Shown here: positions 1,978-21,726 of the stretch, piece by piece
Numbering within the stretch: position 1 is the stretch's first letter
Layout of the letters: each line of letters opens with the position of its first letter
UHGV virus genome: UHGV-0017783
Source of the DNA: a virus
Strand: one strand, 5' to 3'
DNA length: 45,985 nt
Made by a program: the position numbers and the translations under genes
The notes under the pieces: generated by a model
The model's database searches: none
What the model saw: the letters and a program-made list of their open reading frames with translations, nothing else
Told to the model about the DNA's origin: nothing

Positions 1978-2022
1978 TCTGCCTCCTGTTCAAATAATGA
2001 TTAATTCTATCACAACAGGTAT

Positions 2023-2054
2023 TGACGTAGATTGAGTGGTGGTGCATAGTATCT
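2023..2054 (+). promoter_or_regulatory. sigma70-like promoter of recurring phage type (TTGACGTAGATTG ... 17 nt ... -10)
   Basis: TTGACG at 2023-2028 followed by tagattg; -10-like CATAGT/TAGTAT 17-20 nt downstream; same 13-mer recurs at >=8 promoter positions. Confidence 0.5.
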
Positions 2055-2076
2055 ACATCAAATGATGAGTGAGGTG

Positions 2077-2235
2077 ATGAAGATGAATCCACGCAATGTT
2101 AACTTTAGTAACGAATGCGCATTTAATTCTCGTGAGTACCATTTCGCAAAGCGCCGCAACGAGGTCAAGCGCCTGATGGCTTGTGGATACACGAAGAAAC
2201 GTGCGCAACAATTAGCTAAGAAGAATGGATATTAA
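2077..2235 (+). CDS. hypothetical small basic protein (52 aa)
   Basis: ATG preceded by GAGG; first gene of plus-strand cassette between lysis and head genes. Confidence 0.35.
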   Translation: MKMNPRNVNFSNECAFNSREYHFAKRRNEVKRLMACGYTKKRAQQLAKKNGY

Positions 2236-2237
2236 TT

Positions 2238-2381
2238 ATGGTAATAGTTAAATTCAAAGAAAACGGACACTGCGGAGTGTTCAACCTTGAGCAAATCAAA
2301 ATTCGTCCGTGCGGTAAAGTAGTTGCACCATTTGGTTTGGTGCAGATGCGTGAATGCGAGATTATTGAATATATCAAGTGA
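2238..2381 (+). CDS. hypothetical protein (47 aa)
   Basis: tightly spaced after previous gene (3-nt gap), SD-like AATTATGG context. Confidence 0.3.
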   Translation: MVIVKFKENGHCGVFNLEQIKIRPCGKVVAPFGLVQMRECEIIEYIK

Positions 2382-2389
2382 GGTTGGTG

Positions 2390-2686
2390 ATGGAAGAGTT
2401 TAAAGGCACACAAGGAAAATGGGAAGTTGTTGCTGGTGAAGATAACGCGCCAGATGTTATCTCGGATATTGGTGTTGAGGTTGCATTCACGCCAACATAT
2501 AACGGCGATAAAACCGAACAGCGGCATAACGCAAAATTAATCGCAGCATCACCGGAACTACTCGCAGCACTCCAGCAGCTACTGGAAATCTACGACGACA
2601 ATTCCGGCAAAGTCTGGACAACATCAAGCAAGCGTCGCGCTCTGGATAATGCGCGTGCGGCGGTTAATAAGGCATTGGGAGAATAA
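2390..2686 (+). CDS. hypothetical protein, paralog of 35871..36179
   Basis: MEEFKGTQGKWEV..NAKLIAASPELLAALQQL..ARAAVNKALGE aligns with MKDEFKGTKGQWTN..NSNIITSAPELLEALRQL..ANKAIKKALGKK of the second copy. Confidence 0.5.
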   Translation: MEEFKGTQGKWEVVAGEDNAPDVISDIGVEVAFTPTYNGDKTEQRHNAKLIAASPELLAALQQLLEIYDDNSGKVWTTSSKRRALDNARAAVNKALGE

Positions 2687-2688
2687 TT

Positions 2689-2913
2689 ATGTGGCTTGTA
2701 TTTAATGTTGGTTGTATCGAATGTGGCGTTTCATCAAATGTTGTTGCAATTTATCCAACTGAACATGAGGCTAATGCAGTGGCAGAAAAACTAAATGATG
2801 TTCACTCATGGCGCGAAGGCGACCAAAACTCGTATGAGGTATTTAAGTTTGGTGAGCTGTACGAGGTTGAGGATGAATATAAAGAAATACTTTCTGATGG
2901 AGAAACAAAATGA
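2689..2913 (+). CDS. hypothetical acidic protein (74 aa)
   Basis: ORF with translational coupling to neighbours (stop/start overlap ATGA at 2910). Confidence 0.4.
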   Translation: MWLVFNVGCIECGVSSNVVAIYPTEHEANAVAEKLNDVHSWREGDQNSYEVFKFGELYEVEDEYKEILSDGETK

Positions 2914-3512
2914 AACTTATCGACCTGTTAGTTCAAGAATTACCTAAGCGTGGTGGGTGGCCTGAAGGTGCTGAAATTGCCGTACAGGATGCCGACTCTC
3001 AGATTTGCTTCAGCTCTCACGGTGATGTATATGCAGACAAAAGCCAAACCGATTGGTATGGTGGTGATTGGGGTGGCGGAGGCTGGAGTAATCCATTCAT
3101 TGACACTATTGCTGATGACAGGCATGAGTGTATCGTAACTCGCGACCAATACGAATCCGCGCTCGCCGCATCGCAAAAGCCAGCATGGAACGGTGAAGGC
3201 GTCCCGCCAGTTGGGTGCCAGTGTGAATGCCATGTCGATGAAGGAATAATTCATTGCGTTGTGGTTGGTTATGATTTTGATGGGAAAGCCGTTGTGATGC
3301 GAAATATTCCTGCACGCAAATACTTCTCCATTCAGGCTAACTCTGGGCGCATAAAACCACTGCGCACAGAAGCAGAGAGGAAGCGTGATGCAGCAATAGA
3401 GGCGATGCAGAGAGAAGCTGATGATGGTGATAACTGGATTTATAGCGAATACGAAATCATTTACGACGCCATCGCAGCAGGCAAGATTCCCGGTGTAAAA
3501 CTTGATGATTAA
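2910..3512 (+). CDS. hypothetical protein (200 aa) with Gly/Trp-rich and Cys-cluster motifs
   Basis: WYGGDWGGGGWSNPF and GCQCECH motifs; last gene of plus-strand cassette, followed by terminator. Confidence 0.45.
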   Translation: MKLIDLLVQELPKRGGWPEGAEIAVQDADSQICFSSHGDVYADKSQTDWYGGDWGGGGWSNPFIDTIADDRHECIVTRDQYESALAASQKPAWNGEGVPPVGCQCECHVDEGIIHCVVVGYDFDGKAVVMRNIPARKYFSIQANSGRIKPLRTEAERKRDAAIEAMQREADDGDNWIYSEYEIIYDAIAAGKIPGVKLDD

Positions 3513-3618: not shown

Positions 3619-4546
3619 CCGATTGCCACGCCTCACGCTGCTTATCAAGCCTTTCCTGTGATGACTCAAGAATGACTGGCTTGCCATCCATTAATAACGC
3701 TGGAGTTTGCGCACAGTGACAATTATATTTATTGCCATTCTCGCTGTAAAACGTATCAATCTCTTCCGGTGTATAGAACTTGCCATGCCGTGATGCATGC
3801 CAAGCCCTAGTTGATTTCATCAGCGCCGATTGCCACAGCATCACCGTCTCAACACCTAGCTCCTCTCGCGCCTCAATGACCTCTCGCCTGTTAGCCTGAC
3901 GCAGCGTTCCGGTTATTTCAGTCTGTGCCAGCTGCTTAGCGTAGCTATGTGACACGTCAACGCGCTTGACAATATCAGACTCAATATCACGAGGGTTAGC
4001 GCCACGGGCAATGCCTTCCATAATGACAGATGCCAGTTGCTGACGGGAATAATCACTCAATCCGCGCCAGTCTGAATATCCTGCTGTGTATGCCAGTTGA
4101 AGTCTGTTCAGATAAGGCTCACTGTAGAGTATCGTAGCAATCGGCCTTTGTTCTGCATAAACCGGAGACAGACTTGACAGTTCTGAGTTAGCCTTCTGCG
4201 TTCCAGCCTGATACGCATCACCAATGAACACGTTAGCCCACATCCTGCCGTGACCGAAATCATCACCTTCAAGCAGAATCTCGTCAATCAGCGCCTGCAA
4301 TTCATCCATGAATGTGGCGGCTCGCGCACTACTGAAATCGTAGAAATACAGGCCGTTTGATTCTGCGTTAGCCTGACTGCTCGGAATAGTGTGGAACAAC
4401 TCAAGCGCACGAGTCCTGAGTTGCTTGTATTTGCGAGTTATCACCTTATCCATCTTCGACAGGCGAGTCGCAGCACCCAGCGGGTCGGTCAGGCTCTGTG
4501 ATATGCGCGGTTGGGGAAGTCTTGCGTTAAACCGGAGTATCTTCAT
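3596..4546 (-). CDS. head morphogenesis protein (phage Mu F / SPP1 gp7-like minor head protein)
   Basis: 316-aa ORF immediately downstream of portal in late operon; composition and position typical of MuF-like family. Confidence 0.55.
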   Translation of the reverse strand: MKILRFNARLPQPRISQSLTDPLGAATRLSKMDKVITRKYKQLRTRALELFHTIPSSQANAESNGLYFYDFSSARAATFMDELQALIDEILLEGDDFGHGRMWANVFIGDAYQAGTQKANSELSSLSPVYAEQRPIATILYSEPYLNRLQLAYTAGYSDWRGLSDYSRQQLASVIMEGIARGANPRDIESDIVKRVDVSHSYAKQLAQTEITGTLRQANRREVIEAREELGVETVMLWQSALMKSTRAWHASRHGKFYTPEEIDTFYSENGNKYNCHCAQTPALLMDGKPVILESSQERLDKQREAWQSANKKPSK

Positions 4547-5448
4547 TTTCGTTTTCCACCATATTTTAAAACCAAATCAGCAGCCTCGTGGATTGATACA
4601 TTGAAGAACTCAGTTGCACCATCAAATCCTGTCAACCCTGCATTTTTATGTTTTATTTCTTTATGTATCATTGATTCAGCCCTTCTCGCGTCAGCCCATG
4701 ATGGGAATGAGTACTCAGCAACCACGACAACGGTTTTCCCTGCTGATTTTGATATGCTCTTCATTCTTCTTTTGGTGTTGTTGCTTATCCCGATCTTGCA
4801 CACCCCATCCATTTCAGCCACATATACACTTGCAGGTTTATACCCATAAGCTGTGCATTTATTACAACCAGATCCACTCAAGTGTGAGTTCGGCGTCTGG
4901 TAGAAATCACCATGCAGATGACATGTAATGCACACTTTTCTTGAGCTTTTCACGTAATTAACTTTCTCGTATGAGTATCTTCTCCCATGAATCGCTTTTG
5001 CTTTTGTTATGAAAGAGGCTTTATTGTCGCTAAATTTGTCTGATAGGTGCTCAAGTTTGCATGATGGGCAACCATTTCCTGATAGATGGTTGGCTGGCTG
5101 CTGTGAAAAGTCACCATGTTTTTGACATGTTATCAACACCTTCCTGTGATTTCCGGTATATACGCATTTGTCATATGAATATTTATCACCATGAATCATT
5201 TTAGCTTTGGAGATAAATTCATCATTTGATGCCATCAATTTTCTTGCTCTAACATCTCTAGCGCAAAGCTCGCAGCCGTAACCAACGAGATGGCATTCCG
5301 CTTTTTGAGTAAAGTCACCATGTTTTCTGCACGTTATTATTACTTGATTTTTCGTCCCGGAAAACACAGATTTATCATAAATGTACTTATCGCCATGCTT
5401 TTGCTTGGCGCGAGAAATGAAGTCTTCCGTGGTGAGTCTTTTTGCCAT
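4543..5448 (-). CDS. putative homing endonuclease: three tandem Zn-ribbon repeat modules + C-terminal T5orf172/GIY-YIG-like domain
   Basis: Three ~55-aa repeats (F I S/T K A K x x H G D K Y x Y D K ... K V x I T C x K H G D F x Q ... H L x G x G C P x C) followed by KIGISNNTKRRMKS...GFDGATEFF domain; inserted between portal and MuF genes; real start probably MAKRLTTEDF. Confidence 0.5.
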   Translation of the reverse strand: MAKRLTTEDFISRAKQKHGDKYIYDKSVFSGTKNQVIITCRKHGDFTQKAECHLVGYGCELCARDVRARKLMASNDEFISKAKMIHGDKYSYDKCVYTGNHRKVLITCQKHGDFSQQPANHLSGNGCPSCKLEHLSDKFSDNKASFITKAKAIHGRRYSYEKVNYVKSSRKVCITCHLHGDFYQTPNSHLSGSGCNKCTAYGYKPASVYVAEMDGVCKIGISNNTKRRMKSISKSAGKTVVVVAEYSFPSWADARRAESMIHKEIKHKNAGLTGFDGATEFFNVSIHEAADLVLKYGGKRK

Positions 5449-5542
5449 GATTAACCCCGTAGTAGGTTCGTAGATTGAGGATGCAGCAGGGTGTCTACGT
5501 TCACCTTTTCGTCTGGCCGGACTAGCTGCATTTGTTATTATA

Positions 5543-6967
<1,425 letters not shown>

Positions 6968-6973
6968 TCACCA

Positions 6974-7003
6974 ATAAAAAATCCCATCACGTTGGATGGG
7001 ATT
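6974..7003 (-). terminator. hairpin + T-run (minus strand) immediately upstream of portal RBS
   Basis: plus-strand aaaaa-atcccatcacgttggatgggat; on minus strand reads hairpin followed by TTTTTT. Confidence 0.45.
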
Positions 7004-7037
7004 ATAACACGAGCTTGCAGTGGCTATGGTTGATGGC

Positions 7038-7639: not shown

Positions 7640-7846
7640 TCACCCTCTCAAAAAATCATTCTTGCAGCAGATACCCTTGTACCCACGCTTCTCTTGCAGG
7701 TTAACGAAGACATCATCAATGACGCGCAGCAGGAAGTCCTCGTCAATATCATACCGACGGCATATGACATCATCAGGCACACCAGCTCTCGCCAGTAAAT
7801 AAACCTGTTCTTTTTCCTCCTGTGTGAATCCTGCATAGCTGCGCAT
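7640..7846 (-). CDS. hypothetical protein (68 aa)
   Basis: first ORF downstream of minus-strand promoter at 7877-7905. Confidence 0.35.
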   Translation of the reverse strand: MRSYAGFTQEEKEQVYLLARAGVPDDVICRRYDIDEDFLLRVIDDVFVNLQEKRGYKGICCKNDFLRG

Positions 7847-7876
7847 AGTGATATCTCCGACAAACCTGATGTAGAT

Positions 7877-7905
7877 ATACTATGCGCTCGGTGTAGATTG
7901 GTCAA
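7877..7905 (-). promoter_or_regulatory. sigma70-like promoter (minus strand) TTGACC-17-TAGTAT
   Basis: reverse complement of ggtcaa (7900-7905) and atacta (7877-7882) with 17-nt spacer; contains GTAGATTG motif. Confidence 0.45.
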
Positions 7906-7943: not shown

Positions 7944-7972
7944 TTGACGTAGATATATTGGTGATGTAGATT
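7944..7972 (+). promoter_or_regulatory. sigma70-like promoter TTGACG-17-TAGATT
   Basis: TTGACG 7944-7949, TAGATT 7967-7972, 17-nt spacer; gtgatgtagattg element. Confidence 0.55.
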
Positions 7973-7998
7973 GAACTCATGAAACGGAAGGGGTGAAA

Positions 7999-8153
7999 AC
8001 ATGAAAGATGTTAAATTTAGCGCAAAGAAAAACAAATTTGGTCGCATCCTGTTTTATGTCATGGAAGACAACAAGCATCTTTATGAGTTCAACAAAATAG
8101 AGGATGCGGCGGAATGGATTGCTGAGCTTGGTCGCCGAGCATTGATTAAATGA
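7999..8153 (+). CDS. hypothetical protein (51 aa), single-gene plus-strand unit
   Basis: ATG with GGGGTGAAAAC SD, flanked by own promoter and terminator, opposite to surrounding genes. Confidence 0.4.
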
Positions 8154-8190: not shown

Positions 8191-9606
8191 GCGACGGATT
8201 AGCATCCCGCTACCGCGTTGGACGATGTGGTCCCCAAGGCCATAGCGTAAACTATCAATCGCGTGATTGTACTTGTCAACTATATCAGGGAGTATGTTCC
8301 CTGTTAATTTATCCACCTTGTAGCTGTACATTGTCATCTCTTCAATGACGTGCTTGCATCTTGAGTGTACGTAAATCCTGTCGCACCCACGTAACCACGT
8401 AATTCCGTCCTCAATGCTACCCGGCCATTTTGCGCACGGATGAATATCGAATCCAGATCGGCGTATATGGCTTATTGTCTCAGGTCGAGCGCAATCACCA
8501 TACCATCTGTACTTTTCTGAATTTGGGAAGGCCGAGCGCATTGCCTCCGGTGTGTCAGTTATCTCAAGGCCAACCTTTGCAAAGTCGCGGTAGATATATA
8601 AGTTCCTGCGTCCATCACCCAAGTCTTCTACATATGATTCTGTTGCTGCGGTTGCATCCTGAGAAAAACCAAAGTCAATGCCGTAGTAAGGCCCTCCCCA
8701 CTCAGGAGATGGTTCAAAGTCCAGTGTTTGCCATTTCCCACCGAGAACAGCTTCTTCAGACCGCTTGTTGAATAATCCCTCATACACCCAAAGGTAGCGA
8801 TCATAATCCACCGCCCTCATCTGGTTCATGTGCTGTTTAAGTTCTTCCGTGAACCACGGGTTGTGGACGTAGTTAACATTAACAACAACGATGTCATCAT
8901 CCTGATATATGCCATCAACCATCTTGTCGATGTAAGGCTCAACAAAGTTAGTCCACGTTGGGTCCGTCTCTTTGTTCGGGTTAAAAACAATAATAATTTC
9001 AGAACCAGCGGCGCGGACTGTTGGGATCAGCGTATCCCATGAAACCTGACTAATATTCTCGGATTCTTCACAGAATACATCTGTAAGCCCAGCCATACCT
9101 TTGATGGCGGTTATGTTTCGCCAGAGGCCACGAAAAACAAACTTTGATCTCGTTGTGTGGTGTGTTATCTCGCCATCCACGCAACGATATTCCTGAGTGT
9201 GCCCCTTCCTGTTTATCTCATCGACCAGCTCGGCATAGCTTGATTCTTTGATTGAGTTCTGTATCTCGCGGAAGCATCCGACGCGGCTGTTGCGGAATCT
9301 TGCTTTTTCTATCAGATAAGATATACACGTTCGGCTCTTAGAGCTGCCACGCCCCCCATAAAACACTTTAAAACGCCGTGGGTAAAGGATAAGCTCCATC
9401 CGCTCAGGAATTAATATTGTTGGTTCTTCATCAGTTTCAGATACCCCCGTGGCTGTCATCTTAAGGCGCTTTACGACATTGGGAGAACCATCCTGAAGTA
9501 ACTTATCTACAAGCCCAAAAACTGCTGATTCTGGCTTTGCAGTTGAGTTGCCAACTACCTGTTCAAGTTTTTCGATTGCCACACTTGAGAGTCTTTTTCT
9601 AGCCAT
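8182..9606 (-). CDS. terL: terminase large subunit
   Basis: Walker A YGGRGSSKS near N-terminal ATPase domain, C-terminal nuclease-like acidic residues; 474 aa. Confidence 0.8.
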   Translation of the reverse strand: MARKRLSSVAIEKLEQVVGNSTAKPESAVFGLVDKLLQDGSPNVVKRLKMTATGVSETDEEPTILIPERMELILYPRRFKVFYGGRGSSKSRTCISYLIEKARFRNSRVGCFREIQNSIKESSYAELVDEINRKGHTQEYRCVDGEITHHTTRSKFVFRGLWRNITAIKGMAGLTDVFCEESENISQVSWDTLIPTVRAAGSEIIIVFNPNKETDPTWTNFVEPYIDKMVDGIYQDDDIVVVNVNYVHNPWFTEELKQHMNQMRAVDYDRYLWVYEGLFNKRSEEAVLGGKWQTLDFEPSPEWGGPYYGIDFGFSQDATAATESYVEDLGDGRRNLYIYRDFAKVGLEITDTPEAMRSAFPNSEKYRWYGDCARPETISHIRRSGFDIHPCAKWPGSIEDGITWLRGCDRIYVHSRCKHVIEEMTMYSYKVDKLTGNILPDIVDKYNHAIDSLRYGLGDHIVQRGSGMLIRRRR

Positions 9607-10129
9607 GATTACAAAACTCCCCGTGATGTTTCTCTCTTTCTTTCATTATCTTTTTGACTGCATCTTCAATGTTGGCAAACCTACCAAGGTTAACCTCCCT
9701 ACCATTTATATTTAATCTCGCCATCCACTTGCATCTTGATTTATCCCAATACACACCCTTAACTCCTGATGTGTTGTTTGCCTGTAGCTTTTTGTTGTAA
9801 CCATTTTGCTGATGGTCAGCCTCTCGCAGATTAACAAAACGATTATCAAGCGTATTGTTGTTTATGTGGTCTATTTCTTTTTCAGGCCAACTACCAGTCA
9901 TGTAAAGCCAAGCCAGCCTGTGCGATCTATACCACTTTCTTCCAAAATGAATATAGTGATACGGTCGCTTGCTACCAACTGGGCCGCATAATTTTATTGT
10001 TCCTGCTGGCTTCCCGGGTTTGGCCCTTCCCTGCTTGTGTGGGTTTTTCCATGTAAAAATTCCGGTGTCAGGATTGTAATCAAGGATGTGTTTTAATTCT
10101 GCTTGCGTAAGCATATATAGATTCCTCAT
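9599..10129 (-). CDS. HNH endonuclease with AP2-like DNA-binding domain (homing endonuclease)
   Basis: EIDHINNNTLDNRFVNLR..H.QN (HNH_3) followed by TSGVKGVYW...W.A.....G....LGRF (AP2); inserted between terS and terL; paralog of 44800..45312. Confidence 0.7.
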   Translation of the reverse strand: MRNLYMLTQAELKHILDYNPDTGIFTWKNPHKQGRAKPGKPAGTIKLCGPVGSKRPYHYIHFGRKWYRSHRLAWLYMTGSWPEKEIDHINNNTLDNRFVNLREADHQQNGYNKKLQANNTSGVKGVYWDKSRCKWMARLNINGREVNLGRFANIEDAVKKIMKEREKHHGEFCNHG

Positions 10130-10213
10130 CAGGGCATCATTGAAGTGAATGCGGCAGGCGGTGATGAGTCGCTTTTCGGGTGCCCCCTATCCGCATTGAT
10201 TATTATAAATCAG

Positions 10214-10702: not shown

Positions 10703-10732
10703 ATAAAAAAGAACCCGCACAAGGCGGGTTAA
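10703..10732 (-). terminator. rho-independent terminator (minus strand) separating early-right genes from terminase
   Basis: plus-strand aaaaaag-aacccgcacaaggcgggtt; minus strand reads hairpin then TTTTTT. Confidence 0.55.
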
Positions 10733-11207
10733 AGTTTGGGTGATGATATGAGTGAAAGCAATGGTGGTTATGCGCTTATTGTACACCATGATTATCACGC
10801 TTGCCAGCATAGCACCATGCGTTTTCATTACGTGTCTGCACATGAACGATTTCAATCGCATCAGGGAATGTTTTGGAAACCTTCGCGATGAAGTCGTCCA
10901 GTTCGTACTGCTTTGCGAGTTGCCAGACTTTTTGCTTAGTTGTTTGCATTAGCAAAAGCCCTCGTTGAGCACATGCACTTAATGTCATGCATACCATTGT
11001 CAGGCACAACCTCAATGCGATTGCCGAGCTGCACCATCATGTAATGACAGGTCATCATACCGTCCCAGTAGCGTTGCCACATGTTATGCATTGCTTCGTT
11101 GATATCGTCAAACATAATGCACAACCCCTGCAATAGCCGCCACCAGAGCCAGAGCATAAACAGCAAGGAAGATTTTAGCGCCAGTGGTGTATCGGCGTCG
11201 TTGGTGC

Positions 11208-12652: not shown

Positions 12653-12835
12653 TCAAAACACGATAATCAGCTCATCCATTACTCTTCGCTTGCCTTCACC
12701 ATTAAACACACGCACAACGCGATTTACGCGGATAGATTCCATTGCATTGCGTGCCTGCTTGCTCATAAAGTTCTGCGCGCCAACGTGACCGAGTTCCGGC
12801 TCCAGTTTTTCGCGACGATAGATAGTCTTTGCCAT
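12653..12835 (-). CDS. hypothetical early protein (60 aa, basic)
   Basis: ORF in early-right operon. Confidence 0.3.
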   Translation of the reverse strand: MAKTIYRREKLEPELGHVGAQNFMSKQARNAMESIRVNRVVRVFNGEGKRRVMDELIIVF

Positions 12836-13192
12836 TTGTTAAACCTCATAAGAACCAATGATTGCCTTAATTCTACGGCGATACCACTGCATGATGTGTT
12901 CGTTATGCCAGTTGCTCATTTTGTTACTCCTTATATCCTGATTTAGAAACTGCCACTGTGATAATGATGAACGCCATGATAACCATACTGGCGATAAGTT
13001 CGAATGCTGCGCCTGTCATTTACTCAACCCATACGCTGAGATTAAAGCCTGCATTGCTGCGTTCCAGAATGCTTCGGAAGGAATGCTGTTGTTTGTGCGT
13101 TCAACTGCAATGCGCGCCATAGCCTGTGCATCTTCAAATTCTTCACGGTTTTTGATTTTCATATCTTCACCCTCGTTTGCTCCGATGAGTTC

Positions 13193-13221
13193 AATCTACA
13201 TCAGTTGTAATTCTACGTCAA
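13193..13221 (-). promoter_or_regulatory. early-right promoter TTGACG-17-TAGATT (minus strand)
   Basis: reverse complement of cgtcaa (13216-13221) and aatcta (13193-13198), 17-nt spacer; same 13-mer family. Confidence 0.55.
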
Positions 13222-13439: not shown

Positions 13440-13700
13440 CCAAGTTATCGGGAAGCCAAATTCCTTTTGTTTTCAGTATTTTCCGTTCGCTTCCCAGCTT
13501 CCCGAAAAATACCCACCATTTTTTTATGATGAGCTTTTGTTTATCCATTTTTTTTTGCTCGGGAAGCGAACACATAAACTATTGATTTTACTTTCTATTG
13601 GCTTCCCGAGAATTTTTCTCATTTACCTGTATACTATTGAAAGATAAAGGAAAAATTAAGCTCTGAAATATTAATACGCTTTTTCGGGGAGCGTGTCAAC
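13440..13700. promoter_or_regulatory. iteron-like repeat array (TCGGGAAGC x5, alternating orientation) in AT-rich intergenic region; candidate origin/operator
   Basis: tcgggaagc at 13448; gcttcccagcttcccga 13487-13503; ctcgggaagcg 13559; gcttcccgag 13601; degenerate tcggggagc 13684; flanked by long A/T tracts; lies between divergent early operons and upstream of primase. Confidence 0.5.
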
Positions 13701-13815: not shown

Positions 13816-14031
13816 ATGTACAGGTTTGGTAGCGCAATGGCTGAAGTGTATGAGTTTGTTAGCGGGATGTCGATTGGAGAGGTGCGATTTTTTGTGGTAG
13901 ATGATTTCCGTGCCAATAACAGTATTGAAAAATTCAGGGCGATCCTGTGCTGTGTTGCGAAAGATAATTCGTGGCTTTTTGTAACCAGAAAGATGGAAGA
14001 AGGCGAAGTGTCTGTTCGGAGAATTAAATGA
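13816..14031 (+). CDS. hypothetical protein (71 aa) upstream of primase
   Basis: ATG with GGAGG SD 6 nt upstream; stop overlaps primase start. Confidence 0.4.
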   Translation: MYRFGSAMAEVYEFVSGMSIGEVRFFVVDDFRANNSIEKFRAILCCVAKDNSWLFVTRKMEEGEVSVRRIK

Positions 14032-16361
14032 TGATTGGTTATGAAGATTACCGCAAATGTGGCTTCCCTATTATTGGAATCCATGCAATGGATATCGACC
14101 GCAATTGCACATGCGGTGATCCAGAGTGTAATGCTGCCGGTAAGCATCCGGTTATGAGCAACTGGCAGCTTGGAGTTATATGGGCTGATGACCAGATTGA
14201 AAATATGGCTGAATATGGTCAACTGCAGTCATTCGGTGTCCTTGTGAATGGTTATCTGGTCGTTGATATTGATCCACGCAACGGAGGTAATGATGGATAT
14301 GAATCGCTTTGTGATGCCTTAGACGTAGAGCTTGCTGACGAAGCTGGTTTTACGGTCAAGACTGGCGGCGGCGGTCGCCACATCTATTACAAACTTCCTG
14401 AAGGAATAAAGCTGCGCTCTCATGACAGAAGGTTTAAGGGTATTGACTTTAAATCCTCTGGTTTTGTTGTTGGCTGCGGCTCATTCCATAAGTCAGGTAA
14501 CTTTTATGAAGCTGAGCATGGCTCTCCTTCAGAGATAACTGAATGCCCTTCTGAACTTATTGAGCTTTTGTTGCGTCCTGAGAGAACGGAAGACGAGGTT
14601 TTCACGCTTGATAGTAAAAATTACAGTATTGCCGAAATGGAGGATATGCTCAAATACATCAAAGATGGTGATGAGTATGACCCATGGCTTCATGTAGGCA
14701 TGGCTATCCACGAAGCTACAGAAGGCAATGGTTTTGAGCTTTGGGATAGGTGGTCATCGCAGTTCAGCAAGTACAGAGCTGAAGAGATGGACGCAAAATG
14801 GCATTCCTTTGGAAAGGACGGCGTTAGCGAAAAGATAACCGAAGCAACGCTGGTTTATCTCGCGCAAGAGGGAGGGTGGGTAAGGCAAGTAACTTTTGAG
14901 GCTACTCCAGAGGAAATTGAGAAACTTGAGTCTTTCGAGCGAGAGATGGCAATGGGTGTTGGTGAATGCCCTGTAGAGTACAAAAGTGTTGATGTCCGTT
15001 ATCCTCCTGGATTTGTTGGTCGCCTTACGGCGTGGATTAATAAGAACTGTGCAGAGAAGCGAGAGAATATTGCAGCACTTGCTGCATTGCACGCAGCATC
15101 CATGATTTGTGGGGCGTCATCTGATATTTATCTTACAAACAGGAAAGCCTTACCAAACCTGTTTACTGTTGGTATCGCTGGTTCAGGTTCTGGTAAGGGT
15201 GATGTTCTTGCTGCGCTACAAAAGATAATTGATTGCTCAGGATTGAGTAAGACTGTAGCCGGCAAGATACGTTCAGAGCGTGCGATATATGAAGGTCTTT
15301 GCGCTAACCAGATGTTTAATATCATCATGGATGAGATTGGGATAAAACTTGGGAGTGTTGTTGGTCAGAAAGTAAGCGAGTACAACATGGCAACCGCTGG
15401 TGCGATCATGGAGGCTTACACGTCAGAAGTTCTTTATTGTGACCAGCGGGTTACTGAGGATTTCATTAAGTCTTTCGAAAAGAGAAAGGCTATGTTGTTG
15501 ATGGCTATTGAGGAAAATGAAATACAGGCAGACCCCGTAGACATTAAGTGTCAGTTTGATGATGTGATAAACAGAATTGACGGAGCTATAAGGAATCCAT
15601 TTTTTTCAATCTTTGGTGTGTCTACTGATGATCAGTTTAAGCGCCTTATTACTGAAGAAAACATTAAGTCAGGTCTTATGGGTCGCGCAATGATTATGCA
15701 GGAGTTACAGGAGATTGCTGACGAAAACGAAAACGTTAACTACTGTGATCTACCTATGGATATGCAACTGACCATAAAAACAATAATAAATGGCGGAACG
15801 GCTGGGCACAAAAACTGGACAGACTCAATAATCAGTCAAAAAGAAAGACGGATTATAAAAGCTACGCCTGAAGTTTCTCAGCTCGCTAAGGAGTTCTTCT
15901 CATGGATTAAAACCGTTGCAAGAAAGCATGTAGAAAATGGTACTGGTTATCACCCATTGATAAACAGATGCGCCGTGAAGGTGGCAAAGATTGCTGGCAT
16001 TCTCGCGTGCGATACTGGCGTCATAACCATGGAGCACTTGAGGTATGCGGTAGCATTAACAATTAAATCAACAAGCGATCTGATGATGCGTGCTGACAGT
16101 ATCGCCGGAGCGAAGTCTAAAGCTATGGAAGAACGAATTGAAGGTATTTTCTCAATGGTTAAAGAATATGTGAAGCGAGGAATGACCAAAACAGCAATGG
16201 TTAGGGGGGTGGCAAAAGAAGGTGGTTATAAACGTGCTGATGTCGAGAGGTGCGTAGAGAAGTTGTTATCAGATGGTATTATTTGCATTGATGAAAATGC
16301 AAAAAGAACATCTCACAACGTAATAATTTACAAATTAACAAATGATGAGGTTGAGATATGA
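14028..16361 (+). CDS. DNA primase/polymerase (Prim-Pol N-terminal domain) fused to DUF3987/D5-like helicase-type ATPase region
   Basis: N-terminal bifunctional primase-polymerase-like domain with Zn-binding Cys cluster (CTCGDPECNAAGKHP), central P-loop-like GIAGSGSGKG; 777 aa. Confidence 0.65.
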   Translation: MMIGYEDYRKCGFPIIGIHAMDIDRNCTCGDPECNAAGKHPVMSNWQLGVIWADDQIENMAEYGQLQSFGVLVNGYLVVDIDPRNGGNDGYESLCDALDVELADEAGFTVKTGGGGRHIYYKLPEGIKLRSHDRRFKGIDFKSSGFVVGCGSFHKSGNFYEAEHGSPSEITECPSELIELLLRPERTEDEVFTLDSKNYSIAEMEDMLKYIKDGDEYDPWLHVGMAIHEATEGNGFELWDRWSSQFSKYRAEEMDAKWHSFGKDGVSEKITEATLVYLAQEGGWVRQVTFEATPEEIEKLESFEREMAMGVGECPVEYKSVDVRYPPGFVGRLTAWINKNCAEKRENIAALAALHAASMICGASSDIYLTNRKALPNLFTVGIAGSGSGKGDVLAALQKIIDCSGLSKTVAGKIRSERAIYEGLCANQMFNIIMDEIGIKLGSVVGQKVSEYNMATAGAIMEAYTSEVLYCDQRVTEDFIKSFEKRKAMLLMAIEENEIQADPVDIKCQFDDVINRIDGAIRNPFFSIFGVSTDDQFKRLITEENIKSGLMGRAMIMQELQEIADENENVNYCDLPMDMQLTIKTIINGGTAGHKNWTDSIISQKERRIIKATPEVSQLAKEFFSWIKTVARKHVENGTGYHPLINRCAVKVAKIAGILACDTGVITMEHLRYAVALTIKSTSDLMMRADSIAGAKSKAMEERIEGIFSMVKEYVKRGMTKTAMVRGVAKEGGYKRADVERCVEKLLSDGIICIDENAKRTSHNVIIYKLTNDEVEI

Positions 16362-16753
16362 TCAATTACAAGTATCTGGTGATGAGAGGTTTGTATGACT
16401 ATTTTGAGTCAGAAAATCCTGAGCGCGCACATGATAACGCAATATCCATGATGACAGGAAAGCACCTGATGGAAGTTTACTACTGGAAAATGCCTGTATT
16501 TCGCTGCAATATGGGTATCTGCATTGATGATGACGTACTGTTTTGTCGAATACAATATGAAAACAATGTAGGTATAGTGACAGCATCGTACAGGGATGTT
16601 GCAAGAAAATCAGGGAACTGGCATCCAAGCGAAGTATTTGCTGGTGACGCACTGTTTAATTTCTGCAAGGCGTTTGGCGTTCCGTACGAGGAAGTAAGCA
16701 AAGAATATGGCGGAAGGCGCGAGAAAGATAGCTTAAGCTCAAAAGGAATTTAA
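16358..16753 (+). CDS. hypothetical protein (131 aa)
   Basis: ORF overlapping primase stop (ATGA), followed by terminator. Confidence 0.4.
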   Translation: MINYKYLVMRGLYDYFESENPERAHDNAISMMTGKHLMEVYYWKMPVFRCNMGICIDDDVLFCRIQYENNVGIVTASYRDVARKSGNWHPSEVFAGDALFNFCKAFGVPYEEVSKEYGGRREKDSLSSKGI

Positions 16754-16771
16754 CAAAAGCCAGCAAACATA

Positions 16772-16804
16772 ACAAAAAGCCCGCAAACGCGGGCTTTTTT
16801 ATTT
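16772..16804. terminator. bidirectional rho-independent terminator
   Basis: aaaaagcccgcaaacgcgggcttttttatt. Confidence 0.65.
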
Positions 16805-17041
16805 AACAATCCATTTTGTAACAGCTGGCCTTAAATCTTCCTTTCTGAAAACTCCACCAGTAAGCGCCTCGGCATCAATTGCTGCTGTAGCACTAATTCT
16901 TCCTCTTGACACCCACTGATTAACAGCCTGTTTTGACACACCAAGAAACCTTGCCAGTTGTGATTGCCCTCCAACATAATCAATCAGCTCTGACAGCTTA
17001 TTTTGTTCCATTTCTCTTATTTGTTCTGCGATGCTTTTCAT
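16799..17041 (-). CDS. Cro/C1-type helix-turn-helix DNA-binding protein
   Basis: GQSQLARFLGVSKQAVNQWVSRGRI HTH; likely start MKSIAEQ with AGAGG SD (ORF-track start is TTG upstream). Confidence 0.55.
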   Translation of the reverse strand: MKSIAEQIREMEQNKLSELIDYVGGQSQLARFLGVSKQAVNQWVSRGRISATAAIDAEALTGGVFRKEDLRPAVTKWIVK

Positions 17042-17175
17042 GTATTTACCTCTGCTATCTGTATGCAGCAATAATGAACTCAAAAAAAATTTTCGTCAAG
17101 CTATTGCGTTTACCATCATGTTGACGTATCTTTAAGTCACACCAGCGATATGCTGAGTTAAATCGAGAGGACACT

Positions 17176-18003
17176 ATGAGCTTATCAATGATTCAAAAAC
17201 CAAAACCAGCAGCACCAATCATAACATTGGTTGGCACTCCCGGGGTGGGTAAGACAACTCTTGCGGCGCTATTCCCAAATCCAGTGTTTATTCAGGCAGA
17301 AGAGATCACCGGTGTTTTTGATGACTGGGATGATGAAAAGAAACCAGATTCATTTCCTGTACTGAAGCGAGCTGATGCTAAACGCAAAACAAGCACAAAG
17401 GATGATTTGCTGTCACAGCTACGCGCATTAATTACTGAGGAACATAATTACAAAACGCTTGTGATTGATTCAATCACAAGCCTGCATTCAATGTTTGAGC
17501 ATGAGGTTTGTGAAAACTACGGTGTTGACAACGTTGGTTCTGCTGCTGGTGGTTACAACAAAGGATATATTGTTGTTTCTGAAATGCACGCTGAAATAAT
17601 AAATGCATGTAAGTATCTTCGCAAAGAAAAAGGGATGAGCATTATTTATCTTGCACACGCAGGTGTTAAAAAGATGAAGAATCGCCCTGATGCTGATGAA
17701 TACACTGTTTACACACTTGACATGCATGATGCTTCTGTTTCTGGTTATGTGAATCTTAGTGATGCTGTTATTTACATCAGAAATGAGGAGTTTGTGAAAG
17801 GTACTGAGACTGATAAAAAGGGTCAGGTAACTAAGTTTGGTAAGGTCGTCCAGACCGGTCAGCGAGTTCTTATCACATCTGGTGACGGTCGAGTTGGGTA
17901 TGTTAATGCAAAAAACAGATACAACCTTGAGCCTGAAATTCCTTTTGAAAAGGGTGAGAATCCACTTTTGAGTGAGATTAAGTATTATGCGAATCAAAAC
18001 TGA
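17176..18003 (+). CDS. Sak4-like AAA ATPase (RecA-fold recombination mediator)
   Basis: Walker A GTPGVGKTT, Walker B-like VIDSITSL; co-located with Gp157 and SSB. Confidence 0.7.
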   Translation: MSLSMIQKPKPAAPIITLVGTPGVGKTTLAALFPNPVFIQAEEITGVFDDWDDEKKPDSFPVLKRADAKRKTSTKDDLLSQLRALITEEHNYKTLVIDSITSLHSMFEHEVCENYGVDNVGSAAGGYNKGYIVVSEMHAEIINACKYLRKEKGMSIIYLAHAGVKKMKNRPDADEYTVYTLDMHDASVSGYVNLSDAVIYIRNEEFVKGTETDKKGQVTKFGKVVQTGQRVLITSGDGRVGYVNAKNRYNLEPEIPFEKGENPLLSEIKYYANQN

Positions 18004-18169
18004 TAACGGTAAGTATGAAACTGTAGTGAGTAATGGAAGGATTGAAATTTATCGCCATGGAGAGTTATGGCGCGACGAAACGGGAGATAACTATATATTG
18101 TCTCTTCTATTTAAAATTGATGAATTAGGTGGTGATGATGCATCTCTACGAGATAACCAAACAGCTTAA
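17987..18169 (+). CDS. hypothetical small protein overlapping Sak4 end and Gp157 start
   Basis: 60-aa ORF in alternate frame; weak SD; could be spurious. Confidence 0.25.
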   Translation: MRIKTDNGKYETVVSNGRIEIYRHGELWRDETGDNYILSLLFKIDELGGDDASLRDNQTA

Positions 18170-18617
18170 TGAACTGCTGGCGATGGAGGATATTCCACGG
18201 GAGCAGATTGAAGATACCATAAATCTTATTGAAGAGGAGTTTGAAGGAAAGGCTGAAATGGTTGCTGCTTACATTCGTGAGCTTGAAGCTGATGAAGCTG
18301 GACTTAAATCCGAGATTGACCGTCTTTCTGAGCGTAAGCGTGTTTTAGTTGCGAAGATTGATAACCTTAAAGGTTATCTTCTTCAAAACATGGTGGCGTC
18401 AGGAAAGACAAATATCAAAGGCAAGTTGTTCAGTATCACCATTGGAAAACCGTCACCAGTTCTTGATGTGTTTGTTCCTGTTGAGCGGCTTCCTGAGCAG
18501 TACCGAGTTGTGAAAGTGTCGGCAGATAATGCAGCAATTAAAAATGCGATAAAAGCCGGGATTGAAATTAAGGGTTGTGCCATCACCGACGGCAAACCAA
18601 AACTGATCATCAAATAA
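18135..18617 (+). CDS. Gp157-family protein (siphovirus Gp157, Sak4-associated)
   Basis: coiled-coil N-terminus and conserved C-terminal region typical of Gp157 proteins found with Sak4/SSB. Confidence 0.55.
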   Translation: MMHLYEITKQLNELLAMEDIPREQIEDTINLIEEEFEGKAEMVAAYIRELEADEAGLKSEIDRLSERKRVLVAKIDNLKGYLLQNMVASGKTNIKGKLFSITIGKPSPVLDVFVPVERLPEQYRVVKVSADNAAIKNAIKAGIEIKGCAITDGKPKLIIK

Positions 18618-18634
18618 ATCGAGAGGACACAAAA

Positions 18635-19156
18635 ATGGGTTTCTGGAATCTTTCTGACGGTAAAGCTGTTGAATCTAAATCTGAATTTGAACTGGGTGGT
18701 GGTTTTGAAGTAATTCCTGATGGTAGCCGTGTTCTTGCTGCCGTTGAAGAATGTAAAGACGACCAGTGGGAAGGTGAGCGATTCTTCAATCTTAAGTGGC
18801 GAATCCTTGATGGTGAGTATAAAAATCGCATCATCTTCCAGAAGCTGAAAGTATTTAGCTCAAAAGAAAAGCAGCGTGACAATGCTATCACTATGCTTGC
18901 AGCAATTGACGCAAACGCCGGTGGTAAGCTGATGGCATCAGGGAAAGAGCCGACTGATTTTGCTATTGCCAGCGCGCTTGCAAATCGCCCAATGATTCTT
19001 CTTCTGCGCGTTTGGGAATCTGAGGATAAGCAAAAAACTGGTAACTATGTGGCTGGTGTTTTCAGTCGTCAACAGACAAAAGCAGCGCCTGCTCCTAAGC
19101 AATCTGCACCGTCTAACGAGCCTCCGATGGACTTCGATTCAGACGTGCCATTTTGA
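18635..19156 (+). CDS. ssDNA-binding protein (DUF669-like) with SSB-type acidic C-terminal tail (..PPMDFDSDVPF)
   Basis: C-terminal DFDSDVPF resembles E. coli SSB tip DFDDDIPF; Gln/Pro-rich linker; position after Sak4/Gp157. Confidence 0.6.
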   Translation: MGFWNLSDGKAVESKSEFELGGGFEVIPDGSRVLAAVEECKDDQWEGERFFNLKWRILDGEYKNRIIFQKLKVFSSKEKQRDNAITMLAAIDANAGGKLMASGKEPTDFAIASALANRPMILLLRVWESEDKQKTGNYVAGVFSRQQTKAAPAPKQSAPSNEPPMDFDSDVPF

Positions 19157-19170
19157 TTTAGATTGGAATG

Positions 19171-19197
19171 ACAGGGCCATTCGTGGCCCTTTTTATT
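19171..19197 (+). terminator. rho-independent terminator after ssb
   Basis: agggccattcgtggccct + ttttatt. Confidence 0.6.
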
Positions 19198-19209
19198 CGA
19201 GAGGAAATT

Positions 19210-19398
19210 ATGAAAGAAAATAAAGAAAAATATGAAAAGTTCATGAGTTTTTCCGCGTGGAGAGAATTTGGTTTTACAGTAATAAAAGGTGAAAAATCAA
19301 GTTTTAGAAGTCCAGATGGTATTCCATTATTCAATGAGTCTCAGGTTACTGAGATAGATGATGATATTTTAGATCTAAATCATTGCGATTTATATTAG
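19210..19398 (+). CDS. hypothetical protein (62 aa)
   Basis: ATG with GAGAGGAAATT SD-like context. Confidence 0.35.
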   Translation: MKENKEKYEKFMSFSAWREFGFTVIKGEKSSFRSPDGIPLFNESQVTEIDDDILDLNHCDLY

Positions 19399-19408
19399 GA
19401 TTTGATTT

Positions 19409-21274
19409 ATGAAATATACGCTAAGGCCATACCAACAGGAAGCGGTTGACGCGGCTATGGCACACATTCGCAGCACCATCTCATCATGCGTTATCATCCT
19501 CCCGACAGGTGCAGGAAAATCTATGGTTGTGGCAGAACTTGCATCTCGTATTTATAGCATGAGCAAAAAGCGAGTTTTGTGCATTGCTCCCACAGCGGAA
19601 CTCGTCACACAAAATCGCGCTAAATACCTTCTTACCGGAGAACCAGCCAGCATGTTCAGCGCAAAGGCTGGACCAAAAAACCTGCGGCATCCGGTGGTGT
19701 TTGGCTCACCAGTTACAATCAAGAACTCAATAGAGATGTTTGGTGATAAGTATGGCGCTGTCATTATTGATGAATGTGATGGAATAACTCCAACCATTAA
19801 ATTTATTATTAATGAAATGAAGCGCCGCAATCCAAAACTGCGTGTTATTGGAATGACCGCTACGCCTTATCGCCTTGGAACTGGATACATCTACAAAGAG
19901 CATTACCTCGACGGTCCTACAGATGAAGAAACTGCCATTGACCCATATTATGATAAGGTTGTTTATGAGCTTGAGGCTAAATTCCTCATTGAAAACGGAT
20001 ACCTTACGCCGCCAGTCACAGAGCCTGTTGTTGATGAATATGATACGTCTTGTCTTGAAAAGGATAAGTTGGGTCGGTACACAACAGCTTCAGTTGAAAA
20101 GGCGATGGTTGGCAAGGGAAGGAAAACATCACGCATTGTTGAAGATATTATCCGTCGCTCTGTTAATCGGCGCGGAACGATGATTTTTGCCAGTACTAAG
20201 AAACACGCTATGGAGATAATGGAGTCACTTCCTCCCGGTTCTTATAGTTATGTTTTTGGTGATATGCCGACAGCTGAACGCAATAAGGCAATATCAGACT
20301 TCAAGGCGCAAAAAGTTAAATACATCGTCAATCAGAATATCCTTACTGTAGGGGTTGATGTCCCTCATTGTGATCACATAGCAGTAATGAGAGCCACAGA
20401 ATCACCAAGACTCTACCAGCAAATAATTGGCAGGGGGACGCGTCTTTATGAAGGAAAGGAAGACTTTCTTGTCAGCGATTACGCAGGCAACATTCAGCGC
20501 CACTTTTCTGAGACTGGGGACTTGTTCACTCCAGAAATAAAAGCAACAAGGAAAAAACCATCCGTGCCAATGGATGTCAAATGCCCTCTTTGTGGCTTTA
20601 TCAATGAATTTGGCGTGCGCCCAAACCCGGAAAATCTGGAAGTTGACAAGGAAGGTTACTGGCTTGATTTGGCTGGTGACAGGGTGATGATTGATATTTT
20701 TGATAAATCAGGTGAAAAAATTGGAAGCAAGCCTATGCCTGCCCATTTTGGGAGGAGGTGTAAAAACTACGTTATGCACGGCCCATTAAGGGAAATGCAC
20801 AGGTGTACTTATAAGTGGTCGGTGAAAGAGTGTCCTGATTGTGGATTTGAAAATGATATAGCGGCAAGAAACTGCACATCATGCGGCGCTGAAATCATTG
20901 ATCCAAACCAAAAGCTAAGGGAAGAAGCTGACAGGCTTGATTCTTCTCCTTATGCAACAAAGCAATCAAGCGTAACCATGATGAACATCATGAAGCATTA
21001 CGTTTCAAGTGGTGAAGATTTGGTGCACGTAAAATTTGCTATTGACCAGAAGCCATTTTTTGTTAGCAAGTTCTACAATCCAAACTCTGAAAAGGAATGG
21101 ATGAAGAAGGAGTGGGAAGAGTTTTGCGGGAAGTGCTTTGGTGAATCTGACATGTCAATTGAGGATGCAATAGCAAGAAGAGATGAAGCTGTCGCGCCAT
21201 CAGTGATTATGTTCAGAAGAGACAAAGGTAGTAAATATTTCAACGTTAAAGGCATGTATTGGGGGGTATTATGA
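19409..21274 (+). CDS. SF2 (DEAD/DExH-like) helicase with C-terminal Zn-ribbon motifs
   Basis: motif I PTGAGKS, motif II DECD, motif III TATP, motif VI QIIGRGTR; C-terminal CPLCG / CPDCG / CTSCG ribbons. Confidence 0.75.
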   Translation: MKYTLRPYQQEAVDAAMAHIRSTISSCVIILPTGAGKSMVVAELASRIYSMSKKRVLCIAPTAELVTQNRAKYLLTGEPASMFSAKAGPKNLRHPVVFGSPVTIKNSIEMFGDKYGAVIIDECDGITPTIKFIINEMKRRNPKLRVIGMTATPYRLGTGYIYKEHYLDGPTDEETAIDPYYDKVVYELEAKFLIENGYLTPPVTEPVVDEYDTSCLEKDKLGRYTTASVEKAMVGKGRKTSRIVEDIIRRSVNRRGTMIFASTKKHAMEIMESLPPGSYSYVFGDMPTAERNKAISDFKAQKVKYIVNQNILTVGVDVPHCDHIAVMRATESPRLYQQIIGRGTRLYEGKEDFLVSDYAGNIQRHFSETGDLFTPEIKATRKKPSVPMDVKCPLCGFINEFGVRPNPENLEVDKEGYWLDLAGDRVMIDIFDKSGEKIGSKPMPAHFGRRCKNYVMHGPLREMHRCTYKWSVKECPDCGFENDIAARNCTSCGAEIIDPNQKLREEADRLDSSPYATKQSSVTMMNIMKHYVSSGEDLVHVKFAIDQKPFFVSKFYNPNSEKEWMKKEWEEFCGKCFGESDMSIEDAIARRDEAVAPSVIMFRRDKGSKYFNVKGMYWGVL

Positions 21275-21726
21275 TTTTTCCAGAAGGCATTAAGGTGTAT
21301 GGAAATTTAGATTACAGAAACAAAAAGTGCCCGTCAGAAGATGCTGAACTGGAGACTTTTGTGAATCAGGTAAGGAGGCTATATCCTGACTTTGCAAGAG
21401 TTATGATTCATGTGCCAAATGAAGGAAAGCGTAAAGGGTATGAAGTTGAAAATCTGAAGAAAAAAGGTGCGCTAAACTTCGGGGCGTCAGACATCATTAT
21501 CATCGGAAAGCAATCATTCGTTATGGAGATGAAGAGAATGGATCATACTTTATCAAAATGGCAGCCCGGTCAAATGGCATACTTAAAAGTGGCGAAAGAA
21601 TTAGAATCATTCGCGTGTGTATGTCTAGGCTGGGAAGCAGCGATGATGGCATTTAACGACTGGAGAGCAATAAATTACCCAAACTATAAAAAACCATCAG
21701 AGCCATTGATATTTGATGGTTTTTAG
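21271..21726 (+). CDS. VRR-NUC domain nuclease
   Basis: PD-(D/E)xK-type residues (GASD..EMK) in ~150-aa protein; start overlaps helicase stop (ATGA). Confidence 0.55.
   Translation: MIFPEGIKVYGNLDYRNKKCPSEDAELETFVNQVRRLYPDFARVMIHVPNEGKRKGYEVENLKKKGALNFGASDIIIIGKQSFVMEMKRMDHTLSKWQPGQMAYLKVAKELESFACVCLGWEAAMMAFNDWRAINYPNYKKPSEPLIFDGF

Follow-up and report, generated by a model that had tools for sequence, protein, structure and literature searches.

The stretch of DNA analyzed here, UHGV virus genome UHGV-0017783 (45,985 nt, hereafter the window), is the complete, circularly permuted genome of a virulent siphophage of the Skatevirus/Cedarrivervirus group, and the subject of this analysis is a 12-base word, TGAYGTAGATTG, about 14 copies of which lie on the promoters of its small accessory ('early-type') gene cassettes. 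Several named genomes, among them Shigella phage Sf11 (Cedarrivervirus), Escherichia phage Sa179lw (Buchananvirus) and Salmonella phage seszw, are approximately 90% identical over 43-81% of the length, and the BASEL authors have called the group 'Skatevirus and relatives'. Neither the window nor its close relatives contain an integrase or a CI-type immunity module. Phages of the Skatevirus type are often isolated on Salmonella, E. coli, Shigella and Klebsiella, and work to develop them for biocontrol and genome reduction is under way. In the literature that we searched we found no transcription map or transcript data for the group, no paper on its promoters or motifs, and none that placed the 13-base form of the word in a phage context. 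The motif is real and apparently undescribed; it is not a new kind of element and is unsurprising in principle.

Mapping of the Sf11 proteins onto the window placed the structural and lysis genes on the - strand, where they are broken up by cassettes of small accessory genes on the + strand (2062-3512, 8001-8153, 30760-31616, 35397-37882 and approximately 44604 to 45970). The replication module also occupies the + strand (13816-21892), and from 13162 and 44503 two small-gene operons run leftward. Most of the cassettes end in bidirectional terminator-like hairpins.

The motif has the asymmetric consensus TGAYGTAGATT(G), about 11-12 bp in length, with GTAGAT as its core. Exact matches to GTAGATTG numbered nine where 1.18 were expected, a count that none of 100 shuffled sequences reached; the 13-mer TTGACGTAGATTG, with up to two mismatches allowed, was present 10 times (1.26 expected) and TGAYGTAGA 12 times genome-wide (0.62 expected). 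All 12 of the TGAYGTAGA copies were non-coding, though non-coding DNA makes up 11% of the genome (binomial p = 4e-12). An unbiased scan of 7-mers ranked GTAGATT as the most non-coding-enriched word, with 11 of 12 copies outside genes (p = 7e-10; 7609 words), followed by TAGATTG, ACGTAGA and TGTAGAT. The spaced pattern TTGACR-N16-18-TAGATT occurred four times against 0.04 expected.

A preliminary description of the window had reported a recurring 13-mer at about ten positions, and the enrichment and non-coding placement bear this out. Enumeration across the genome with strand and context gave 14 copies in seven intergenic regions, not scattered in coding DNA, and the copies at 2022-2034, 7944/7961, 13221/13204, 30708-30720, 32432-32444, 35345/35376 and 44543/44558 were all present. 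The earlier list, nearly complete, needed small corrections: the first copy begins at 2022 and not at 2023, the copy near 7891 lies on the + strand (7888-7900) and not on the - strand, and two copies had been missed, at 2049-2061 (-) and 7866-7878 (+). Its statement that the sites mark switches in strand polarity agrees with our finding that seven of the 10 divergent (-|+) intergenic regions have them.

Nine sigma70-type promoters with -35 and -10 hexamers carry the motif, and their targets are accessory cassettes, the two leftward small-gene operons and one candidate structured non-coding RNA (ncRNA). Hexamers and spacers agree with those of sigma70 promoters, taken as a -35 near TTGACA, a spacer of 16-18 bp and a -10 with A second and T sixth; the leaders are short, with start codons 21-39 nt past the proposed -10 elements, and the promoters point at their genes. 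Two tandem copies 17 bp apart make up a complete promoter, in which TTGACG is the -35 and TAGATT the -10. Thus the copy at 7944-7956 (+; TTGACGTAGATAT) is the -35 of a tandem promoter for the open reading frame 8001-8153, and TAGATT (7967-7972) of the copy at 7961-7973 (+; GTGATGTAGATTG) is its -10, 17 nt past TTGACG. On the - strand, the copies at 13209-13221 (TTGACGTAGAATT) and 13192-13204 (CTGATGTAGATTG) form the -35 and the TAGATT -10, respectively, of the leftward tandem promoter for the small-gene operon that runs from 13162 down to 10776.

At the left end of the window, a copy of TTGACGTAGATTG at 2022-2034 (+) is the -35 (TTGACG) of the rightward promoter for cassette 2062-3512, for which there are two options for the -10, CATAGT at 2045-2050 (17 nt) or TAGTAT at 2047-2052 (19 nt), both on the + strand. 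An inverted copy, TTGATGTAGATAC, at 2049-2061 (-) overlaps the -10 and start region of this promoter (TAGTATCTACATCAA), and the reverse complement of the 2022 copy lies 9 nt upstream of a leftward extended -10 element at 2004-2012. A second copy of TTGACGTAGATTG at 35345-35357 (+) is the -35 of TTGACG-17-TATAGT (-10 at 35368-35373), the promoter of cassette 35397-37882, which contains anti-restriction, ParB-like and RusA genes; its reverse complement is 8 nt upstream of a leftward extended -10 at 35328-35336. Directly past the -10, around the expected transcription start, a further copy at 35376-35388 (+; GTGACGTAGAAAC) is followed by a leader, and both are invariant in 51 distinct relatives.

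Two rightward promoters of the form TTGACA-17-TAGATT carry the motif over the -10. The one at 30692-30720 (+; motif GGTGATGTAGATT, 30708-30720) drives cassette 30760-31616, which includes a superinfection-immunity homologue, and the one at 32415-32444 (+; variant GTGGTGTAGATTG, 32432-32444) would drive the ncRNA from about 32449. In both of them TGATG or TGGTG comes directly before TAGATT. Leftward transcription of gp68 and the genes downstream of it would start from TTGACC-17-TAGTAT (7905-7877, -), a promoter with one copy in its spacer (7888-7900, +; TCGGTGTAGATTG), abutting the -35 (GGTCAA, 7900-7905), and another (7866-7878, +; CTGATGTAGATAT) that on the - strand lies directly past the -10 TAGTAT (7882-7877). 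The remaining site, 44523-44578, is an imperfect palindrome with 26-nt arms that holds two overlapping divergent promoters, TTGACC-18-AATACT leftward (44575-44546) and TTGACT-18-AACAAT rightward. Here a copy of TTGACGTAGATTG at 44531-44543 (-) comes immediately after the leftward promoter, near where the operon that extends from 44503 down to about 42171 would begin, and ATGATGTAGATTG at 44558-44570 (+) lies in the spacers of both promoters and makes up the right arm of the palindrome.

The place of the motif relative to the best -35/-10 fits therefore ranges from -36 to +13, on both strands. Four copies are at the -35 (2022, 35345, 7944 and 13221), four at the -10 (7961, 13204, 30708 and 32432), two in the spacer (7888 and 44558) and four around +1 (35376, 44531, 7866 and 2049). 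The copies are of two sorts, a '-35 type' TTGACGTAGAww and a '-10 type' nTGATGTAGATTG. Inverted pairs are formed by 2022/2049 and 44531/44558, with spacers of 14 bp for the latter and 14-19 bp for the former, depending on the choice of arm boundaries. The sigma70-like character of these promoters had been noted before, together with a spacing of 17 nt between TTGAC and TAGATT in most of them; the character stands, and that spacing was found in only four of the nine motif promoters. Two others have 17-nt spacers with different -10 elements, TTGACG-17-TATAGT at 35345 and TTGACG-17-CATAGT at 2022.

About 10 structural and lysis units, almost all of those on the - strand, have a second kind of putative promoter, an extended -10 element TGnTAnAAT with no recognizable -35 and no motif. 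On the - strand these elements precede the lysis cassette (2004-2012; TGATAGAAT, back-to-back with a motif promoter), the endonuclease/head-morphogenesis unit (5537-5545, spanning the portal stop codon), the portal (7001-7009), the tail fibre (23756-23764), a tail protein (26338-26346), gp19/tape measure (30672-30680), the major tail protein (32400-32408), the lipoprotein unit (35328-35336), gp38 (38142-38150) and gp41/capsid (42008-42016). Over the whole genome TGnTAnAAT is no commoner than chance would make it, with 14 copies where 9.5 were expected, but the - strand carries 13 of these and nine are fully non-coding (p = 3e-6). Nine orthologous sites lie upstream of the same genes in Klebsiella phage KpV2811. 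Across the family the gap between the extended -10 and the divergent early -35 is 0-11 nt, so that the two polymerase binding sites must overlap. Neither motif nor extended -10 was found at the replication module, the Cro-like gene (whose promoter is TTGACG-17-CATTAT), TerS/TerL, gp15 or the endonuclease VII-like gene. Since the structural and lysis units and the replication module lack the motif, it marks one class of units, with about nine promoters (accessory cassettes, small-gene operons and one ncRNA), and not the transcription units of the genome at large, as had been proposed. The split between -35-dependent and -35-independent promoters is suggestive of a switch between classes such as T4 AsiA or P23-45 gp39 brings about.

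Every motif site of the window is retained in Sf11 and Sa179lw, and the 2022 site is kept in KpV2811 as well. The structural proteins of KpV2811 are mostly 50-80% identical to those of the window and its replication genes are unrelated, and GAYGTAGA occurs in it 10 times against 1.6 expected, nine of these in promoter regions, and two of the nine precede its own, unrelated replication genes (helicase and exonuclease). In 79 IMG/VR loci, collected through the ParB-like protein, motif density was 0.2-0.5 per kb, compared to 0.04-0.07 per kb in unrelated lambdoid phages. Two temperate phages, considered as comparators, were of use only as negative controls: Erwinia phage EhrS_59, which has structural genes and the ParB-like gene in common with the window, and lambdoid Klebsiella phage Mulock, which has only the ParB-like gene and is otherwise unrelated. 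Each had two to three unclustered copies of GAYGTAGA. Within IMG/VR the tandem form was limited to family contigs of 44-49 kb or short fragments. The composite TTGACGTAGATTG-N4-14-TATAGT had 10 matches in 596 Gb of bacterial genomes (185,579 species genomes), and family genes accompanied just one of these, a contig of a family phage that contaminates a Pantoea assembly. The composite is thus essentially absent from bacterial genomes, and the word is not a motif of the host.

The alignments of these promoters show which bases are held constant. Among 51 different sequences of the 35345 promoter, neither TTGACGTAGATTG nor TATAGT varies and the 9-nt spacer between them is hypervariable; TAGATTG past the -35 (-29 to -23) is invariant, as are the second copy and the leader, and the first downstream gene varies. 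Among 107 distinct versions of TTGACN-N16-18-TAGAT[TA], the last five spacer bases are TGAYG, TGGTG or GTAG and the first 10-12 vary, so the conserved block is at -17 to -13, where it does not match the TGn extended -10. In a divergent clade (loci L077-L079), ATCTAC follows 4-5 nt past the -10 TAGATT, giving GTAGAT-N4/5-ATCTAC palindromes over the -10 and the start, too far upstream to be transcribed.

Taken together, we consider it on balance probable, from these comparisons of sequence, that the motif is the operator of a phage-encoded DNA-binding regulator, superimposed on early and accessory sigma70 promoters. A single specific word is repeated at many of the promoters in the genome, constraint extends to bases not read by RNA polymerase, and neither position nor orientation is fixed; a position and orientation that float over the promoter are the signature of a repressor operator and not of a core promoter element or a fixed activator box. 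A dedicated operator or recognition site had already been suggested in the preliminary description, and it is still the best reading, the word being conserved beyond the needs of the -35 and -10 hexamers. The motif in that case points to a phage regulator, and it places the anti-restriction and superinfection-immunity genes in one regulon with the ParB-like protein and an ncRNA. Combined with the extended -10 class it yields a testable whole-genome wiring diagram of about nine motif promoters and about 10 extended -10 promoters with bidirectional terminators between them. It should be useful for annotating and engineering Skatevirus-like phages, and offers compact, portable promoter/operator parts.

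Two proteins, both encoded in motif-driven units, are candidate binders. One is a ParB/KorB-like helix-turn-helix (HTH) protein (36176-36985, +) with hits to PF17762 and PF08535, a match to Spo0J (1vz0) at E = 6e-13 and a weak match to the KorB structure 8qa8 (E = 0.004). It is present in all three clades, with 81% identity in KpV2811 and 72% in L077/L078. A search of the window for a parS-like palindrome gave only a 25-bp palindrome inside the Sak4 gene, which we rejected as such a site since the Sak4 gene is not conserved in KpV2811. The other candidate is a winged-helix protein (43331-43825, -) assigned to PHROG 1687, 'MarR family', and confined to this phage family (156 phage records). Its structural model is poor (predicted local distance difference test, pLDDT, of 51; shallow alignment with 14 close homologues), and only an N-terminal helix-helix-helix-hairpin could be seen in it. 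The Cro-like HTH protein (16799-17041; PF15943 and PF14549), named earlier as a possible regulator, was dropped as a general binder because its gene is missing from KpV2811, which keeps the motif. Several small, conserved early proteins, encoded at 7640-7846, 10776-10952, 12653-12835, 44051-44245 and 44604-44798, are further possible binders.

Two PHROG 1273 paralogues, at 2378-2686 (+) and 35859-36179 (+), each lie in a motif-driven cassette, and the latter overlaps the start of the ParB-like gene, an arrangement kept in KpV2811. This neighbor was considered as a KorA-like partner of the ParB-like protein and was set aside, having no Pfam or PDB match. The palindrome in the Sak4 gene (17457-17481) is a perfect 12+1+12 repeat, GCTTGTGATTGAaTCAATCACAAGC, and might be a protein-binding site or an internal terminator.

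Several observations weigh against an operator of this kind. Many copies have conserved bases that are at the same time part of genuine -35 or -10 hexamers, and RNA polymerase by itself accounts for some of the conservation. An asymmetric site without fixed spacing fits neither a classical dimeric ParB/KorB protein nor a MarR-type binder. Homologues of the ParB-like protein with 46-48% identity occur in phages that lack the motif, and the winged-helix protein is only 39% identical between clades in which the motif is unchanged. Sf11 and KpV2811 do not keep the rightward -10 at 44574, which makes the promoter assignment at 44523-44578 tentative, and the timing of units as 'early' or 'late' is our reading of gene content only.

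The main rival explanation, which we regard as possible but rather doubtful, is that the motif is a family-specific consensus for strong promoters read by host RNA polymerase alone, the extra bases reflecting polymerase contacts, DNA structure or overlapping alternative promoters. Every site does overlap or abut a plausible sigma70 promoter, TTGACG and TAGATT are good -35 and -10 elements in themselves, and the sorting of copies into a '-35 type' and a '-10 type' would be expected if each were kept mainly for one polymerase contact. However, sigma70 is not known to contact the constrained TAGATTG (-29 to -23) or TGAYG (-17 to -13), neither of which matches TGn, the copies in the spacer, around +1 and in inverted orientation supply no hexamer, and this explanation does not account for the GTAGAT-N4/5-ATCTAC palindromes of the divergent clade. 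Nor has the non-consensus -10 TAGATT drifted toward TATAAT, as a site kept for polymerase alone might have done.

Conservation could also have come from repeated homologous exchange and not from regulation, with blocks at module boundaries that let relatives swap cassettes. The phages encode Sak4, RusA and several homing endonucleases, and relatives have different first genes, with at least five N-termini, downstream of the unvarying leader ...AACAACAATAAATGTTAGAGGTGATG. Within about 60 bp, however, conservation is position-specific, and a hypervariable 9-nt spacer between invariant blocks is not expected from homogenization driven by exchange; the 12-mer, moreover, recurs within one genome beside unrelated flanks. 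A role as recombination linker thus seems to us very unlikely. Even less probable is that the word is the site of an enterobacterial transcription factor exploited by the phage. The hosts of the motif-bearing phages are all Enterobacteriaceae, but apart from the phage contig the composite is essentially absent from the 185,579 bacterial species genomes, and we know of no enterobacterial factor whose consensus matches the word.

If the motif is the operator of a phage regulator, the host polymerase would fire the -35-dependent early promoters first, and a regulator made from one of the motif-driven units would then bind the word and turn these promoters down as infection proceeds. The shut-off would free the extended -10 promoters that overlap them and serve structural and lysis units, as the back-to-back arrangement implies less competition for RNA polymerase once the early promoter is shut. 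Counted from the late promoter, the copies at 2022 and 35345 occupy -24 to -36, so the regulator might also activate that promoter directly. The same class switch would also result, instead or in addition, from an inhibitor of sigma region 4 resembling AsiA or gp39, but the word would then stay unexplained. The bolder proposal, which we think unlikely, is that a single phage protein, possibly of the ParB/KorB family and with logic like that of phi29 p4, reads the GTAGAT word at about 14 sites as a master early-to-late switch, repressing early promoters and activating or unmasking, through these same sites, the abutting late ones at about seven divergent loci.

Comparable arrangements exist elsewhere. 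The C1 repressor of phage P1 binds asymmetric 17-bp operators, ATTGCTCTAATAAATTT, dispersed around the phage genome. The likeness lies in one asymmetric word at many scattered promoters, single or in inverted pairs, overlapping promoter elements and joining unrelated operons into a regulon; unlike the present phage, which has no integrase or CI-type module, P1 is temperate and its C1 keeps lysogeny, and the sequences are unrelated. Protein p4 of phi29 works an early/late switch at the divergent promoters A2b/A2c and A3. There too the early and late promoters are back-to-back, the late one lacks a -35, and one site covers the early -35 while preceding the late -10, like the copies at 2022 and 35345, whereas p4 binds inverted repeats at a single locus and works together with p6; here there are about seven loci and activation is conjecture. 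The KorB/KorA proteins of plasmid RK2 control a global regulon, and the KorB operators are 13-bp palindromes. This resembles our case in having an HTH protein of the ParB family (in this phage a candidate binder only), many dispersed promoters and a repeated operator, but the operator is palindromic there and the word is asymmetric here. In the window the word does not form the 13-16 bp palindrome of a ParB/KorB operator, and short-spacer palindromes of it occur only in L077-L079. The motif also differs from the T4 MotA box, which holds a fixed position near -30 in place of the -35, in that its position varies from -36 to +13.

In cluster A mycobacteriophages, the operators and stoperators of the L5 gp71 type are an asymmetric 13-mer found at more than 20 genome sites, some of them at promoters, and bound by a monomer with two DNA-binding domains (PMC9283540). 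Stoperators are located within operons, all facing the same way relative to transcription, and act by blocking elongation, whereas here all copies are at promoters, at the starts of units and in both orientations, in a virulent phage with neither integrase nor CI module, so that the sites do not qualify as stoperators. T4 AsiA and gp39 of Thermus phage P23-45 switch promoter classes through inhibition of sigma region 4 (PMC3950348). What the window has in common with these systems is a genome with promoters of two kinds, some with both a -10 and a -35 and others, for later genes, with an extended -10 and no -35, but we identified no homologue of AsiA or gp39 in it, and their mechanism needs no DNA word.

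The leader at 35389-35410, ACAACAATAAATGTTAGAGGTGATG, is invariant, and in relatives (loci L007-L081) at least five unrelated first genes with different N-termini lie downstream of it, which marks this position as a mosaic junction. Leader-like sequence was also seen upstream of the 7944 promoter (CAACAATAA(T)AAATGTT) and past the 44558 copy (GTCAACAATAAT).

The preliminary description had counted as a motif variant a sequence at 5460-5475 (5465-5477 in our coordinates), and this proved to be another element. The gene between the portal and head-morphogenesis genes encodes a homing endonuclease (PHROG 681) with a likely start at ATG 5448, and the leader upstream of it, GCAGCTAGTCCGGCCAGACGAAAAG...CCTGCTGCA, matches the Rfam int-alpA RNA (RF02996) at 5468-5532 (-) with 32.5 bits (E = 2.7e-5), below the gathering score of 35.8. 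The CGTAGA and TCTACG of the supposed variant belong to this putative int-alpA-type RNA, and a relative reads CACTCTACG at that place. A second int-alpA copy at 10134-10197 (-) scored above threshold (37.8 bits) and is upstream of an HNH gene (9599-10129). Each int-alpA-type leader sits between a -10 element and the homing/HNH endonuclease gene (5448-4543 and 10129-9599, respectively). Such a leader turns up in relatives before different endonuclease genes, at different loci and behind different promoters, and thus appears to travel with the mobile gene. Four homing-type endonuclease genes are present in the window, at 38200-39005 (+; endonuclease VII-like), 4543-5448 (-; PHROG 681), 9599-10129 (-; HNH) and 44800-45312 (+; HNH); those at 4543-5448 and 38200-39005, the only two that were compared, are insertions relative to Sf11.

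The motif promoter at 32415 is followed, from 32449 to about 32650 (+), by a candidate conserved, structured ncRNA predicted from sequence alignment. Between the window and KpV2811 it is nearly invariant over approximately 235 nt. RNAalifold applied to 22 distinct relatives gave 33 pairs, five of them with compensatory changes, and one hairpin with alternative stems; the G-U pairs are valid on the + strand only. No Rfam family matched at the gathering threshold, and there was a weak match to permuted transfer-messenger RNA (26 bits). In the window no transfer RNA genes lie behind this promoter, while in Sf11 such genes follow the corresponding region. A protein encoded on the - strand at 32449-32763 was considered and rejected, since it has no PHROG match and its frame is broken by an indel in KpV2811.

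The early-left promoter and the primase-polymerase module are separated by an AT-rich gap of 650 bp, in which five to six copies of a repeat, (T)CGGGAAGC / GCTTCCCG, lie in both orientations at 13449-13695. They probably represent a replication origin with iterons. The corresponding gap in KpV2811 has a different repeat (GGGGAAG-like).

Two of the packaging and head genes have promoter-like sequences that run directly into hairpins on the - strand. Before the portal, within 6980-7009, the promoter-like TGTTATAAT is followed at once by a hairpin and T-run (7003-6980), and before TerS, within 10712-10807, CTGGCA-18-TACAAT is followed by a hairpin and T-run at 10730-10712. This arrangement hints at control of the packaging and head genes by attenuation or antitermination.

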